Shown piece after piece: positions 2,633 to 11,913 of a stretch of DNA of 32,000 nt. A program made the position numbers and the translations under genes. Below the pieces are notes generated by a model that saw only the letters and a program-made list of their open reading frames with translations, searched no databases and was not told where the DNA came from. Each line of letters opens with the position of its first letter. Position 1 is the first letter of the stretch. Origin of the DNA: Promethearchaeota archaeon (lineage in GTDB: Archaea; Asgardarchaeota; Odinarchaeia; Odinarchaeales; JBHLKK01); NCBI GenBank assembly GCA_048939465.1, contig JBHLPL010000008.1, forward strand, positions 1-32,000, in the 5' to 3' direction.

Positions 2633-2852
2633 CTTCTTCTCCGCAAGAAGACTCCACCCGAAAGCGTGAAGATGAATTGCGAGGAGTTTAAATAGTTGTT
2701 TTCACGAGAAGCATATTGAATTGAGTCGAGGTAAAACTCGCCAATTCTCAAATAGGGTGTCAGGGCAGGAACTGCCCGCAGAGCCTGTGAGACATGTCCC
2801 GGTGGGGAATGGATGAAACAGGAAGCTCCATCCGAAGGGTGGGGTAGTTCAC
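2633..2852 (+). mobile_element. Non-autonomous IS200/IS605-derived element, short class (copy A1): left end + TATA + omegaRNA-like scaffold + right end
   Basis: Left end CTTCTTCTCCGCAAGAAGAC-hairpin-GATGAATTGCG; TTTAAATA at 2687-2694; hairpins GAATTG/CAATTC and GGGCAG-GAA-CTGCCC; right end GGATGAAACAGGAAGCTCCATCCGAAGGGTGGGGTAGTTCAC, typical of tnpB-family right ends. Aligns with 8599-8824 and 23304-23524. Confidence 0.8.
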
Positions 2853-2888
2853 AAACCGGTTGTTCTTACTAGTCTTGGTGATTCTGCA

Positions 2889-4856
2889 ATGATCCCGATA
2901 CAGAGGGTAGTTTTATACAAACACGGAGTCGGATACTTCGAAAGGCGGGGAAAGGTCAGAGAAACAGCAGCGTTGAAATTAAGGTTCAAGAAAGCTGAGA
3001 TGAGTGATGTTTTGAAAAGCCTTTCTGTGATGGATTTGGGCGGTGGAAGGGTTTCTACCGTATCCTATGAGGCCGCTCCCACCATTTCGAAACTGCTTGA
3101 GAATATCGCAGTCAATGTACCTGAAACGAGTTCCTTAACCGAGCTGATAAAGCAAATCACTGGTATTGAGGTTGAGATTTCTTTCAACGGAGAGAAAACT
3201 CAAGGAAGAGTTCTGGGAATCGAGACCACCGTGGAAGTGGAGGATAAGGTTAAACGAAATATCGACCACATCGTCCTTTTGAAAGATGATTCAATAATTA
3301 CTGTGAAGCTTTCAGACATCAAGAATCTAGCTATTATGGATGAGGATGTTAAAAGAGATCTAGCGTATTTTGCGGACATCATTTCAGACTCAAAGAAAGA
3401 GGAGCTTAAGTCCGTTACCATTCTTTTTGAAGGAGAAGGAGAAAGAGATGCTGTGATATCTTACATGATTGAGGTCCCGGTCTGGAAAACAAGCTATCGA
3501 TTGATAATCTTTGAAGATCGGACAGTCCTTCAAGGATGGGCTATCGTGGACAATATCTTGGATGAAGACTGGGATGGTGTGGGGCTTTCGCTGGTTGCAG
3601 GACTGCCGATTTCATTTCGTCACGATCTGTACACTCCCCGGTATGTTGTCCGTCCTGAGGTAGAAGTTGAAGAAAGACTTGGGGTGGCTCCAGTAGAACT
3701 TGAAGAAGGGGCTGAAGCTGCTGAGCGGGCCGAGATGAAGGCATATGCGCTGGCAGATAGACCAGCTCCCGTGGGGGGTCCCGGCCTAGCTAAGAAGGCC
3801 AGAGCTTTCCGCAGTGCCATGGAACCACGAATGGACCGTGCAATTGAGACTGTTGAAACCATCGCGGAGGCCAAGGAAGCTGGAGAATTCCTGGTGTATA
3901 ATGTAACTGTGCCTGTTACCGTAAAAAGGAATCAATCTGCTCTTGTTCCCATTCTGACTAGTGATGTGGATGGAAAGAAAGTTCTTGTGTATCAAGAGCA
4001 TGCAAGACGCGGCAATCCGATCATGTGTCTTGAACTGACCAACAATTCCGATCTGACTCTGGAAAGCGGACCGGTTACTGTCTACGATGGAGGTGTTTAT
4101 TCAGGTGAATGCATGCTACCTTTTATGGCGGAGGGTGAAAAGCGTCTCTTACCTTATGCTGTTGATCTGGAAACGACGGTGACTCGTGAGGATAGAATGA
4201 AGGACGAATCCGTCCACAAGGTCATTGTACGGGGACCGGTTGTTGAGAGTCTATATTATAGAGCCCGTGAAGCCAAATACAAAATCAGGAACAAGACCGA
4301 TGAAAACAAGGAGATAATCGTAGAGCACGAAAAAGAGCATGGATTTGAGCCTGTTGATATGGAGAAGCCGAGCGAAGAGACTGCAAGCTATTATCGATGG
4401 AGAATAGCAGTTGATTCGAAAGAGACAACGGAGTTCGTTGTAAAACTAAGAAGGCTGATCTCATCAAGTTTGTCCGTTGTCGGAATTACTTCTTCCGTAC
4501 TTGAATTCTATTTGAGAAACAAATTAATCTCAGAAGAGGAATCTGAATACCTCGGCAAAATAGTCAAACTCTCTGAAGAGAAAACTGGTATTGAAGCGGA
4601 AATAGCTAAGTTAGAAGGTATGCAGAAGAAGATCTTTGAAGATCAGCCGAGACTGAGGGATAACCTTAAGGCGTTGGGCAAAACCAGACAGGAGGACGAG
4701 CTTAGGACGAAATATGTCACAAAGCTATCTGAACAGGAGGACGCTTTAGAGAAGCTCAAAAAGCGAAGAGATTCTTTGTCTTCGAAATCTCACAAGTTGC
4801 AGTTGGAAATTGATGCGGCAATCAATGAGTTTGCGAAGTCTCGACAAGACCACTAG
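2889..4856 (+). CDS. DUF4139/DUF4140-type protein with a C-terminal coiled coil
   Basis: N-terminal VVLYKHGVGYFERRG, central WKTSYRL and LQGWAIVDN..DEDW..V.LSLVAGLP motifs characteristic of the family. Confidence 0.75.
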   Translation: MIPIQRVVLYKHGVGYFERRGKVRETAALKLRFKKAEMSDVLKSLSVMDLGGGRVSTVSYEAAPTISKLLENIAVNVPETSSLTELIKQITGIEVEISFNGEKTQGRVLGIETTVEVEDKVKRNIDHIVLLKDDSIITVKLSDIKNLAIMDEDVKRDLAYFADIISDSKKEELKSVTILFEGEGERDAVISYMIEVPVWKTSYRLIIFEDRTVLQGWAIVDNILDEDWDGVGLSLVAGLPISFRHDLYTPRYVVRPEVEVEERLGVAPVELEEGAEAAERAEMKAYALADRPAPVGGPGLAKKARAFRSAMEPRMDRAIETVETIAEAKEAGEFLVYNVTVPVTVKRNQSALVPILTSDVDGKKVLVYQEHARRGNPIMCLELTNNSDLTLESGPVTVYDGGVYSGECMLPFMAEGEKRLLPYAVDLETTVTREDRMKDESVHKVIVRGPVVESLYYRAREAKYKIRNKTDENKEIIVEHEKEHGFEPVDMEKPSEETASYYRWRIAVDSKETTEFVVKLRRLISSSLSVVGITSSVLEFYLRNKLISEEESEYLGKIVKLSEEKTGIEAEIAKLEGMQKKIFEDQPRLRDNLKALGKTRQEDELRTKYVTKLSEQEDALEKLKKRRDSLSSKSHKLQLEIDAAINEFAKSRQDH

Positions 4857-4993: not shown

Positions 4994-5908
4994 ATGAGAA
5001 TCTTGACAACGGTTATTGGAAGCTACCCTGTGTGCGGTAACGAAGGTCCAGACGCTATTAGGGCAGCTGTAGATGTTCAGCTTAGTGCCGGCATAGACTT
5101 GATAAGTGACGGACAAGTTAGACATGATATGATAAAATACTTCACAAGTCATATTCCCGGTTTCGAGATAAAGGGGAACGAATCGGTAATAGTTGGTAAA
5201 ATCCATCCGAGTGATGACAAGTCGATAGCCGTAGACGATCTTATGCGGGTCAAAAAATATGTTAAGGGCAGAGCAAAGGTGAAGGGCATAATTACTGGAC
5301 CCATGACTCTTATCTCTTCATGTAAGATCACCAAGGACTCACCTTATGATAACATTTTTGATAGAAGGCTTTATGAGGATGCAGCTGAAGCTCTAGCAGT
5401 GGAAGCGAAGCAACTGACAAAGGCAGGAGCTGATTCCATCCAGGTAGATGAGCCCTTCTATTCTGTGGGAGTCCCTATGGATCTTGCTAAAGAGTGCGTA
5501 GAACTTATTGTTAACAGCCTTCGTGTACCCGTTTCCCTTCACGCATGCGGTGACATAGGAAAGGTATTCGATCGTCTGCTCGACTTCGATGGAGTGGACG
5601 TGCTCAGCCACGAATTTGCTGCCTCCCCCCGTAATCTTGAGGCCGTTACTCGACAGAAGCTTGAAGAGCACGATAAGAAACTTGGAGTGGGCTGTGTAAA
5701 GACGAATACAGAGCAAATTGAGACGCAGAAAGAGGTCTTGACTTTACTCAAGAAGGCAGCTGAACTGGTTGGTTTTGAGAATATGTGGATTCATCCGGAC
5801 TGCGGCTTGAGACTACTGAATTGTGATGTTGCAGAATTGAAGCTTAAGACAATGATGAACGCCACCCGACAATTCATTGAGGAGTCAGACATAGAGTCCG
5901 AGATATAG
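4994..5908 (+). CDS. metE: Single-barrel (core) cobalamin-independent methionine synthase, MetE C-terminal domain family
   Basis: GSYP and DGQVR at the N-terminus, IQVDEP, Zn ligands HACG / E (HEFA) / PDCGL; 304 aa, lacking the N-terminal barrel. Confidence 0.85.
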   Translation: MRILTTVIGSYPVCGNEGPDAIRAAVDVQLSAGIDLISDGQVRHDMIKYFTSHIPGFEIKGNESVIVGKIHPSDDKSIAVDDLMRVKKYVKGRAKVKGIITGPMTLISSCKITKDSPYDNIFDRRLYEDAAEALAVEAKQLTKAGADSIQVDEPFYSVGVPMDLAKECVELIVNSLRVPVSLHACGDIGKVFDRLLDFDGVDVLSHEFAASPRNLEAVTRQKLEEHDKKLGVGCVKTNTEQIETQKEVLTLLKKAAELVGFENMWIHPDCGLRLLNCDVAELKLKTMMNATRQFIEESDIESEI

Positions 5909-5942: not shown

Positions 5943-7121
5943 TCAATCGATTCTAGGAGGAGCTTCCTTTCTGATTTCAGAAATTAGAAGATTGGAATCT
6001 AGGTATATTGTAAACGAGTGATCTTCATGTTTCAGTACCACGGGTACGGGGAATTTCTCGGCCTTTTCTATTTTGGATTTATCAATTGAGAATTGTATTC
6101 TACTACTGCAGTGCGGGCAGACAACAACCTTCGATATTCTTCTCAGAGGCTCTGGCTCTTCTTCGGGTTCTATCTTGAATGCAGTTCGTTTCTTATCTAT
6201 CCAGCTATGTATTGTAACTCTGGCTTCTGCCAAAAAGGACTTGAGATTGCTAAGCATATTCAGAACTGTAGTCTTGACTCGCTGCTTCTTGATTCCAGTC
6301 TCAGACATGAAGAAAAGTGATAGATTGTAACCCGGTTCCGGCTTCTCTAGAACCGTGAAGACCCCCTTCTCGCCCAGCTTTCGTGTGAGTTTGTTCAATA
6401 TGTAAAGGTCAAATTCATCTTTTACAGGAAATGCTAGTGACAAAACTGCGGAGTTGATGGTTTTTTTGGCGACTCCGTCACTGACTTTGAACTCCTGATA
6501 TTTCGCATGTTCGCATATTTCGTCACTAAACACACACGGATAGTCTGGTCCGTGGGTTGGACAGTTGAATGGTTCTAGATTCAATATTATGTCTAGTACT
6601 TGATCTACTCCCATGAGCTTAGGAGGTTCCTTAACATCAATTCTGCAGAACTCAGCGCCTTCCCACATGCTACTGGCGAGTTCAATCTGGTGATTTGGGG
6701 CCAGAGCAGTCGTAATCTGATTCGAGGCAGGGATACATACAAAGTTACATAAGGCCACTTTTGAGAATTGTTTTCCCCTCTCAAACGCAGGGCAGTGTGT
6801 GATCTTGAGTGTGAGATTGCCTTCGCCGAACTTCTTTACATCAAACTCAAAGCCAAGAATTGGCAAACTGTTTTGATAGAATTCTTCTGTGACATCTATT
6901 CCTTTTCCGACTATTCGAAGAGTGTTCTTTATCTGAGACATTAACGCACCCATCGATTTTTCCCTCTGCTCAGAAAGCAGGGTTGTTGCATCGCCCCCAT
7001 ATTTCTTCACGATCTCAGCGATGGCCTCGGTTTGAATTAGGAAGAGTGCATCATGCAAAATCTTAAGCCTCGATTGGATATCCGTTTCGGATACTCCATC
7101 CACTATCGGTCTGTCATCCAT
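5943..7121 (-). CDS. Multidomain protein: V4R-like domain + ARPC4 (Arp2/3 p20)-like domain + C-terminal CxxC domain
   Basis: HCP..LCNFVC..GAEFC V4R-like Cys pattern; [16 protein letters not shown]..KDEFD and [13 protein letters not shown] resemble the ARPC4 motifs [16 protein letters not shown]..ADEIE and RKPVEGYDISFLI; C-terminal VVCPHC..H..H domain. ATG at 7121 preferred because of a GAGGT SD; the ORF is open to GTG 7169. Confidence 0.7.
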   Translation of the reverse strand: [392 protein letters not shown]

Positions 7122-7275
7122 TTCTATTACCTCTGTCGGTGGGTTTGAATCATGTTCAAGCAAATACACTCGATTCTCACTAATAAAGTCTTTCTAACGA
7201 ATATGAGGCATAAGATAGAAAACATTTATTACACAAAATAAAGAGAACTTTATTCAATGATAAGGAGGCAAAATT

Positions 7276-7785
7276 ATGGGAAATCTGAGAATTTTCAGGA
7301 AAGCTCTGACGATGACTACCAGATCAAAAAGGAGGTTCTTTTCTGCTATTGGCATTTACTGCGTTCTCTCGTGGTGGGTTGCGATTTCAATACATCTAGG
7401 AGAAACCGTTCTCGCTATTATGGGAATCCTTGGCGGACTTATCGTTGCAGTTCTGTACGGCTTTGTCTTAACTCAATTTAGAAAGACTCAGATCGCCACC
7501 CTAAAATGCATAGGGTGGGGGAATGACAATATTCGACTTTTGATGATCGGTGAACTCCTGCTAGTTTCTCTCCTAGGATTCATCATAACGCTGGAAATAG
7601 ACATTCACATTTTGGGATTAAGTTGGTATGTTGGTGTAGCACCTGGTATAATAACTCAGTTTGTTTTCTCAGGTCTTTCTCTGGCTCTTACGTTTGTGAT
7701 AGTGATTTTCGCTCAAATGCCAGGAATTATTATCGCTCACTGGAGGACTCTTCAGGTTAGACCCATGGTGGCACTAAAGGCATAG
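7276..7785 (+). CDS. FtsX/MacB-family ABC transporter permease (short)
   Basis: Four hydrophobic segments, the motif RKTQIATLKCIGW..IRLLMIGE and the terminal RPMVALK typical of FtsX-like permeases; directly upstream of an ABC ATPase. Confidence 0.8.
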   Translation: MGNLRIFRKALTMTTRSKRRFFSAIGIYCVLSWWVAISIHLGETVLAIMGILGGLIVAVLYGFVLTQFRKTQIATLKCIGWGNDNIRLLMIGELLLVSLLGFIITLEIDIHILGLSWYVGVAPGIITQFVFSGLSLALTFVIVIFAQMPGIIIAHWRTLQVRPMVALKA

Positions 7786-7802
7786 AATGAGGGGGTTAAA
7801 AA

Positions 7803-8507
7803 ATGTCAAAAGAAGAATCCATAATTCTCGCGCAAGGCGTCTCAAAAGAGTACAAACGTGGGAGAGAAGTAGTCCAGGCGCTAAGAGGCGTGAACCTCGA
7901 AATCAGAAGAGGAGAACTTGTATGTATTTTTGGTCCCAGCGGAAGCGGTAAGACGACTCTACTGAATGTGTTGAGCGGACTGGACCAGCCTTCTGTTGGA
8001 CGTATCATACTGGATGGTACAGACACAAGTGTGCTGGATGAAAGACTCTTCCCCAGAATCAGACGAGAAAAAGTTGGTTTTGTCTTTCAAGATTTCAATC
8101 TAGTACCTGATATGACAACCATAGAAAACGTTGAATCTCCTCTCTGGCCCACTGATACCAAATCGAAAGCAATCGAAAACAAAGCCTTGGCCCTGCTAAG
8201 AGAGGTAGATCTCCTTGAAAGAAAAGATCACAGACCGAAGCAGCTTTCTGGGGGCGAGCAGCAAAGAGCAGCTATCGCTCGTGCGTTGGTTAACGATCCT
8301 ACTGTGCTATTTGCTGACGAACCGACGGGAAATCTCGATACCAAGACTGGTCAGGAAATCATGAGACTCCTCAGAAGAATTAATAAGGAACAAGGAACGA
8401 CCGTCATAGTCGTAACCCACGATCAGAGTCTACTGGAATATTCGGATAGAGCTTTCAACATCGTCGATGGAAAGGTATCGGAAGTTAAGTCGCGTAGGGC
8501 ATCTTAG
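7803..8507 (+). CDS. ABC transporter ATP-binding protein, LolD/MacB family
   Basis: Walker [10 protein letters not shown]-loop GFVFQDFNL, signature [21 protein letters not shown]. Confidence 0.95.
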
Positions 8508-10863: not shown

Positions 10864-11913
10864 GTGACATCTGAAATGTCCCAAGACGGAAAAAGCAAGA
10901 AGGAGTTGATTCGGGGAGTCTTCGACGGTATCGTTCCGGAAGAGATTCCACTGAACATCGAGCTGGGAGTCCCTGAGATTGAAGCGCAGTATGGGGACAT
11001 AGTCAATATATCGTGCAGGATTTCACGCTTCCGAAGGTTCTATGAAACCGGTGGTCCCTTTGGAAGGAGCAAAGGAACCATCCGGAGATGGGCAGAACGA
11101 TTTGACATAGATACATATAAGTGGCCTAATCCAAAGGCAATAGGTAAGACCCTAAGAGAAGAGATAGCTCATACTGTGAAACAATTTGGTAGCCGATTCA
11201 TTATCTGCAAGATACTGGGTCCAACTGAAACAGCTGAAGGATTCTGCGCTTCGGGTCAGGATGAAAAGGCAAAGCGTCTTGATCAAGTACAGCACAATTT
11301 CGATTTTGCTATGCTGTCCTTTCTAAATCCTGAATCTGCCGGCGAACTACATAAGAGAGTCACTACCTACATCGAGGAATGTATTCGAACTGCTGGAAGT
11401 CTAATGGAAGTCGATGCGATTAGAATCGCAGATGACGCCTTTGATTACAACCGACCCCTATATCCAAATGGCTTCATAGAAACCGTTTACTTGCCCACTC
11501 ACGAGATTCTTGCCAATCTCATTCATAACACAGGAAAGCTTGGGATTATGCACTGCGATGGAGACATTCTCATTCTCAATGTTGCCAAGAGACTAAGCAA
11601 CTTTTACCGTGGATTTCATCCCTTGGACCTGGTATCCAGGATTACCGCGAAAGACGCGCAGAATTGGATAAGACGCCTAGGGGAAGCCAGAAAAACCCTT
11701 CCCGAATCCGTTTTCTTCACGGGGATTCCAGTTGAATTCCTATATGATTCAAGAGTATCTTCAGAGGAATTATGCGAGGTCTGCAGGAAGGCGATACTGT
11801 CAGTAGGAAAAAGATATTTGGTTCTGAGTACGACTCACCGTCCTTTCCCAGGATCTAGTATTAAAACACAAGGTGTGATAGAAAAAATCGGGTCAATAAG
11901 GAAGCTGATTTAA
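10864..11913 (+). CDS. Uroporphyrinogen decarboxylase / MtaA-CmuA methyltransferase superfamily protein
   Basis: IADD..YNRPLYPNGFIETVYLP and GIMHCDGDI follow the URO-D family pattern DD..P..F..P / H.DG. Confidence 0.7.
   Translation: MTSEMSQDGKSKKELIRGVFDGIVPEEIPLNIELGVPEIEAQYGDIVNISCRISRFRRFYETGGPFGRSKGTIRRWAERFDIDTYKWPNPKAIGKTLREEIAHTVKQFGSRFIICKILGPTETAEGFCASGQDEKAKRLDQVQHNFDFAMLSFLNPESAGELHKRVTTYIEECIRTAGSLMEVDAIRIADDAFDYNRPLYPNGFIETVYLPTHEILANLIHNTGKLGIMHCDGDILILNVAKRLSNFYRGFHPLDLVSRITAKDAQNWIRRLGEARKTLPESVFFTGIPVEFLYDSRVSSEELCEVCRKAILSVGKRYLVLSTTHRPFPGSSIKTQGVIEKIGSIRKLI

Follow-up and report, generated by a model that had tools for sequence, protein, structure and literature searches.

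We analysed a 32,000-nucleotide stretch of DNA from a Promethearchaeota archaeon (NCBI GenBank assembly GCA_048939465.1, contig JBHLPL010000008.1, positions 1 to 32,000; hereafter the window) and found that a gene on its minus strand encodes a protein in which an ARPC4-like domain, related to a subunit of the eukaryotic Arp2/3 complex, lies between a Bet3/V4R-fold domain and a small putative zinc module. We hold this three-domain architecture and the underlying homology with high confidence. The explanation that best accommodates the data as a whole, which we favour with some reserve, is that the protein would act as a three-module adaptor coupled to a ligand or lipid, with the actin filament as its favoured partner.

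The middle domain and its relation to ARPC4

The middle domain spans residues 169-319 (6165..6617, minus strand). A first-pass annotation, made from the sequence by eye, had aligned this region with nearly the whole of eukaryotic ARPC4, and the motifs that it picked out proved to be real, N-terminal helix included. A profile built from 19 family members matched the solved ARPC4 chains 3dwl_F, 9dlx_F and 1k8k_F (fission yeast and cattle, with 9dlx_F as the third entry) with E-values from 3.5e-13 to 9e-13 over ARPC4 residues 57-166, the aligned blocks being INS...D-E-I-E, P-x-E-G-Y-D-I-S-F and the C-terminal helix. In the Pfam ARPC4 family (PF05856), residues 220-302 align to profile positions 65-151 of 167 with a score under the gathering level, and 13 of the 19 members of the family alignment match this profile individually, the best with an E-value of 3.5e-12. 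The AlphaFold2 (AF2) model of the whole protein had a mean predicted local distance difference test score (pLDDT) of 85.4 and a predicted template modelling score of 0.69. When this model was compared by Foldseek with the Protein Data Bank (PDB), ARPC4 chains were the best matches to the middle domain, as the annotation had anticipated (E 3e-6; template modelling (TM) score by target 0.64-0.70). VIA-align superposed model residues 170-319 on residues 10-168 of the ARPC4 chain (Z 14.6 and root-mean-square deviation 2.8 Å over 148 of the 166 residues, which are about 20% identical), an alignment that takes in the N-terminal helix, compared with a Z of 8.7 to ARPC2. Together, sequence profile and structural model show that the middle domain is homologous to ARPC4 and has the ARPC4 fold, and that the resemblance is not due to chance.

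The same domain has stand-alone counterparts in other Asgard archaea. These proteins of 150-210 amino acids align to residues 166-320 of the window protein with 23-36% identity, with E-values of 1e-10 to 1.5e-22 in a search of the whole library and down to 5e-28 in searches of individual genomes. The middle module and this free-standing ARPC4-like protein of Asgard archaea are orthologues. Family alignments also revealed a cysteine knuckle ahead of the ARPC4-homologous core (consensus C-x8-10-C-x2-C-x3-5-C), which in the window protein covers residues 187-205 (6507..6563, minus strand; C187, C196, S199, C203 and H205). All three members from the host's genus have Ser199 where the third cysteine would be and retain H190 and H205, and these histidines could take the place of the missing cysteine.

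The flanking domains

The N-terminal domain comprises residues 13-167 (6621..7085, minus strand). In VIA-align it could be superposed on Bet3/TRAPPC3 (Z 11.1 over 148 residues), on the Thorarchaeota TRAPPC3 (Z 9.3) and on three V4R sensor domains, from MopR, PoxR and DmpR (Z 8.4-9.3), and a Z of 8.2 was obtained with the V4R protein MJ1460. Four cysteines, C110, C125, C129 and C159 (C-x14-C-x3-C-x29-C), are invariant across eight orthologues. The first-pass annotation had described a V4R-like domain with a cysteine pattern; the fold and the four invariant cysteines bear this out, but membership of the Pfam V4R family does not follow. The window protein was not matched by Pfam V4R (PF02830) at E<=10, and a search of its own genome with that model found two other loci only. 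The TRAPP Bet3 model (PF04051) matched nothing in the genome at E<=10, and the N-domain sequence profile gave nothing significant against the PDB.

By sequence the domain instead groups with PF14196 (ATC_hydrolase) and DUF6125. The window protein scores 17.3 bits on PF14196, below the gathering threshold of 28.1 bits, and an orthologue of the Odinarchaeum type (P0004) scores 29.0 bits, above it. Stand-alone Asgard relatives of the N-domain, recovered with the domain profile, reach 47-51 bits on PF14196, with MetOD1 as the second match. In the ESM Atlas, PF14196/DUF6125 clusters were the nearest both by features and by shape (TM 0.67-0.74), and the same fold is also found there fused to helix-turn-helix (HTH) and methyltransferase domains, as would be expected of a sensor module. 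We therefore regard the N-domain, on its sequence and model, as V4R-like by fold and superfamily and as PF14196/DUF6125, not Pfam V4R, by sequence family.

Two other loci of the host genome (G000:C131:315-470 and G000:C118:8328-8606) match PF14196 weakly and are possible paralogues of this type of domain. One of them is also matched by the V4R model, which fits a kinship of the two families. A metagenomic protein of 317 residues (P0008) begins with a DUF7948 domain, and its last 59 residues are 69% identical to N-domain residues 41-99; it probably derives from a chimeric or truncated contig.

The C-terminal domain is a small beta domain of residues 328-384 (5970..6140, minus strand), defined from the family alignment and the model, in which C335-x2-C338 and H365-x2-H368 form a putative zinc site that is followed by the motif YLDS. 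The CPHC motif and two histidines singled out by the first-pass annotation are thus C335-P-H-C338, H365 and H368, and they make up a metal motif of the C2H2 type that is conserved. Across the 16 sequences of the C-domain family, both cysteines and the first histidine are invariant, and the second histidine is swapped for a nearby cysteine in two members. Invariant cysteine and histidine residues, with a cysteine beside the lost second histidine, are the pattern expected of metal ligands. The domain is modelled as a five-stranded beta module (pLDDT 80), and the family carries the motif series CPxC, FPVP, HxDH and YLDS and falls into no Pfam family. Fold matches were weak (SoxD, Z 4.5; LysW, Z 4.4), as were sequence matches to Trm112-like UPF0434 and Rpo12/RpoP zinc ribbons (E 0.01-0.1), and the sequence profile found nothing significant in the PDB; the domain has no clear solved relative. 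The motif series also occurs in free C-like proteins of 65-100 amino acids without a Pfam family (P0016, P0017, P0019, P0020, P0023, P0027-P0030, P0033 and P0034), which are common in Asgard families where the ARPC4-like search found none.

Integrity of the gene and distribution of its modules

The gene is a single open reading frame (ORF) on the minus strand, which runs over 5943-7121 from an ATG (392 codons plus stop) or over 5943-7169 from an alternative GTG start (408 amino acids). The 392-residue product is the likelier one, because a Shine-Dalgarno-like GAGGT, read from the sequence (7129..7133, minus strand), lies 7 nucleotides ahead of the ATG at 7121 and because Odinarchaeum orthologues from the sister family (377-383 amino acids) begin near the equivalent of this ATG. 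Between the window protein and two same-genus relatives (83-84% protein identity), the proportion of differing synonymous sites was 0.74-0.78, meaning that these sites are saturated, and that of nonsynonymous sites was 0.08. The ratio of nonsynonymous to synonymous rates between those two relatives was 0.07 overall, with values of 0.12, 0.05 and 0.02 for the three domains. The gene is real and under strong purifying selection in every domain, and a chance ORF is excluded.

The host assembly (1.96 Mb, 152 contigs, 91% complete) encodes a thermosome, and genome comparison assigned it to an order that also holds four genomes of 1.3-1.4 Mb, among them that of Ca. Odinarchaeum yellowstonii LCB_4. 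NCBI labels the close relatives 'Candidatus Hodarchaeota archaeon' or 'Promethearchaeota archaeon' (one locus is JBHLKK010000049.1), all as hypothetical proteins, and these labels are at odds with the placement beside Odinarchaeum. The three-domain ORF is unbroken in all seven genomes searched of this order, including the closed LCB_4 chromosome, where the orthologue is OdinLCB4_000280 (WEU40407.1), annotated 'hypothetical protein'. An NCBIfam search of the window protein returned no match.

To map the three modules, we ran HMMER exhaustively and searched 301 Asgard genomes in six frames. This recovered more than word-index searches, which had yielded just two near relatives of the complete protein and, for the N-domain, no stand-alone relative. 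The three-domain ORF was confined to the seven genomes of the order, which represent two families, and was found nowhere else among the 301. The ARPC4-like family itself occurs in 94 of them, or about a third, and labelled stand-alone members come from Freyarchaeota, Njordarchaeales and Wukongarchaeota. It was found in none of the 76 genomes of the family that we designate f6 and none of the 19 of f12, and in one of the 68 of f9, where the match was weak. Stand-alone N-like genes, by comparison, occur in 51 of the 76 f6 genomes and in 33 of the 68 f9 genomes, and stand-alone C-like genes are present in f6, f9 and f12. Outside this order, Asgard archaea thus encode the three modules as separate genes, mostly in different lineages.

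We considered a Rosetta-stone argument, in which the fusion would point to cooperation between the separate proteins, and rejected it, because stand-alone N-like and C-like genes are found mainly in f6, f9 and f12, where the ARPC4-like family is essentially unfound. No ARPC4-like gene has one of them within 1.5 kb, and in the cases compared the N-like and C-like genes were on different contigs from each other. A second architecture is present in family f13, where an N-terminal ARPC4-like domain is followed by a linker and a helical extension of about 200 amino acids without a Pfam match; examples are P0021 (361 amino acids, NCBI label Njordarchaeota), G012:C1:1288494-1288973, G023:C1:1320564-1321040 and G034:C142:2603-3082.

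Proposed function and its alternatives

In Arp2/3 structures such as 1k8k, 6w17 and 8e9b, ARPC4 and ARPC2 serve as a scaffold for actin-family proteins and are in contact with the mother filament. The window protein probably has a non-enzymatic role as an adaptor or sensor. Each of the three modules may hold one structural zinc, a proposal that we make because the Thor TRAPPC3 binds zinc through four cysteines (PMC10933270). In that study, Tran et al. (2024) solved the Thor TRAPPC3 as a homodimer with a cavity, in which zinc is held by four cysteines as in PoxR, and argued that the protein binds a ligand. The N-terminal module would likewise enclose a cavity that accommodates a lipid or small hydrophobic ligand, as in Bet3, PoxR and MopR, and the ARPC4-like platform would dock on a partner, making the protein a ligand- or lipid-coupled adaptor. 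The favoured partner would be the side of filaments of the cell's single actin, analogous to the contact of ARPC2/ARPC4 with the mother filament. Actin is tentatively the most likely single candidate, although we would put its being the partner somewhat short of even. A predicted complex of two copies of the full protein scored 0.29 against a mark of 0.42, a result that says nothing for or against dimerisation.

Several findings weigh against an actin-directed function, or against the assignments on which it is built. Only homology ties the protein to actin, and the motifs that it has in common with ARPC4 are strands of the fold core and include no known interface residues. The window protein falls under the PF05856 gathering score of 22.2 bits, both as a whole (14.5 bits, E 0.028) and as the domain alone (16.6 bits, E 0.006), as it falls under that of PF14196. 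The host genome contains one actin-family gene (445 bits on Pfam Actin), and PF04045, PF04062 and PF04699, which represent ARPC2, ARPC3 and ARPC5, had no match at E<0.05 in this 91% complete genome; ARPC1 was not searched. A tblastn search with the host actin detected no actin gene within 10 kb of the ARPC4-like gene at 20 loci, which were drawn from at least 12 families and searched as 20-kb neighbourhoods, and none in the window. No neighbour was conserved across families, and none recurred beyond five loci in the comparison of the 20 neighbourhoods. Moreover, of the Asgard families searched, the two largest are essentially devoid of matches to the ARPC4-like family (0 of 76 genomes and 1 of 68). 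If those two families encode actin, which was not searched for there, actin function would not need the ARPC4-like family. Actin has reportedly been published for Lokiarchaeia and Thorarchaeia. Membership of a canonical Arp2/3 complex was considered and is ruled out by the missing subunits, since the genome gave no match to ARPC2, ARPC3 or ARPC5 and has a single actin-family gene.

The strongest alternative is that the protein serves as an adaptor or regulator but has nothing to do with actin, and we judge it a real if lesser possibility. The ARPC4/ARPC2 fold would then be an old docking module that eukaryotes later recruited into Arp2/3, and in Odinarchaeales it would dock on another partner under the control of the ligand-binding N-domain. 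The missing Arp2/3 subunits and the single actin, the lack of genomic linkage to actin, the patchy occurrence of the ARPC4-like family across Asgard lineages and the limitation of conservation with ARPC4 to fold-core motifs all agree with this alternative. However, the domain has only two characterised relatives, ARPC4 and ARPC2, each of which touches the mother filament as well as actin-family proteins, and our data suggest no alternative partner.

The gene neighbourhood bears on a further alternative. Both in the window and in LCB_4, genes for a small FtsX-like permease and an ABC (ATP-binding cassette) ATPase lie divergent to the gene on one side, and a MetE-like gene lies convergent on the other, with a TauE/SafE sulfite-exporter gene close by in each genome. 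The MetE-like and TauE/SafE genes, together with the place of the N-domain in the PF14196 sequence group, would suit a catalytic N-domain, a thiazoline or related hydrolase of sulfur amino-acid metabolism, as the family's name implies, with the ARPC4-like and zinc modules serving for assembly only. We consider this improbable. The neighbours are on the opposite strand and thus not co-transcribed with the gene, and the synteny is limited to two families of one order. The characterised members of the fold (Bet3, PoxR, MopR, DmpR, H-NOX and the Thor TRAPPC3) bind rather than catalyse, and the Atlas fusions to HTH and methyltransferase domains are sensor-like. The weakest alternative, that the likeness to ARPC4 is accidental or that the fusion was created by assembly, a missed stop codon or a frameshift, draws on the sub-threshold Pfam ARPC4 score of the window protein alone and has a negligible probability in view of the family-profile E-value of about 1e-13, the Z of 14.6, the same unbroken ORF in seven genomes, one of them a closed chromosome, and the strong purifying selection across all parts.

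The adaptor with actin as its favoured partner therefore remains our preferred reading. A bolder version, which we regard as speculative and unlikely, is that the fusion records an ancestral Asgard coupling between a Bet3/TRAPPC3-fold lipid or ligand module and an ARPC4-fold binder of actin-filament sides. If true, it would represent a pre-Arp2/3 device by which a membrane or metabolite signal is coupled with the actin cytoskeleton, and the origin of the ARPC2/ARPC4 core would be open to experiment through a protein from the closed Odinarchaeum genome.

Neighbouring genes

The fusion gene looks monocistronic. Its conserved flanks lie at 4994-5908 and 7276-8507 (both plus strand) in the window and at 181-1386 and 2634-3548 (both minus strand) in the LCB_4 locus (L008), and the convergent neighbour in both is a MetE-like catalytic-domain protein. 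Two further ORFs of the window, 2889-4856 (plus strand, 655 amino acids) and 10864-11913 (plus strand, 349 amino acids), had no Pfam match at E<=0.001. The neighbours of stand-alone ARPC4-like genes vary by family, with radical S-adenosylmethionine, aminotransferase and RNA cyclase genes among the examples. At nine loci, which belong to two Asgard families, the gene convergent with the stand-alone ARPC4-like gene shows similarity to ABC_transp_aux and, with an E-value of 1e-18, to the IFT52 GIFT domain (L010:215-1444, plus strand, and the equivalent ORFs in L011-L018).

Novelty and implications

ARPC4-like proteins have been listed among Asgard eukaryotic signature proteins (PMC7522288, PMC7444086 and a 2026 preprint), in line with the statement of the first-pass annotation that homologues had been reported. 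Our literature search found no paper on the fused form, on the cysteine knuckle or on the function of Asgard ARPC4-like proteins, which is in keeping with the annotation's remark that it did not recognise the architecture as described. The ARPC4-like family is thus already known in Asgard archaea, and the fused form appears to be undescribed.

A natural fusion of this kind is a rare functional clue: it implies that, in a single order, a ligand-binding Bet3/V4R-fold domain and a zinc module operate jointly with the ARPC4-like module, and both flanking folds are linked to eukaryote-like systems, namely TRAPP and small zinc adaptors. Tubulin, FtsZ and roadblock proteins of Ca. Odinarchaeum yellowstonii have reportedly been expressed and solved already, so that actin binding, the zinc sites and the ligand pocket are directly testable in LCB_4. 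Actin binding, if true, would provide the first functional evidence on a pre-eukaryotic role of the Arp2/3 scaffold; if false, the cytoskeletal listing of ARPC4-like genes would need revision.

Comparison with known systems

The C-domain resembles the zinc ribbons of LysW, Rpo12/RpoP, Trm112-like UPF0434 and SoxD in the CPxC knuckle that opens a beta hairpin, but its second pair is HxxH, it has a YLDS strand and an FPVP motif that only the Asgard family displays, and none of these ribbons is a significant match. The N-domain has the two-layer alpha/beta fold, about 150 residues long, of the V4R/Bet3/H-NOX superfamily, as do the Thor TRAPPC3 (7yh2 and 7yh3), Bet3/TRAPPC3 and the V4R domains of PoxR, MopR and DmpR, and its cysteine-rich putative zinc site recalls those of the Thor TRAPPC3 and PoxR. 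It differs from TRAPPC3 and V4R proteins in that it has no Pfam TRAPP or V4R match, groups with PF14196/DUF6125/MetOD1 and is part of a fusion, not a free homodimer.

Eukaryotic ARPC4 (p20-Arc, PF05856) is similar to the middle domain in fold over nearly the whole subunit, in its core motifs and in its long C-terminal helix. ARPC4 is a subunit of Arp2/3, whereas ARPC2, ARPC3, ARPC5, Arp2 and Arp3 were not found in the host genome; the Odinarchaeales domain is instead embedded in a 392-residue three-domain protein and carries a cysteine knuckle at the ARPC4 loop region. The stand-alone Asgard ARPC4-like proteins show clear homology and possess the same knuckle. They are single-domain proteins, however, whereas the window domain is flanked by two more domains and has a serine in place of the third knuckle cysteine.

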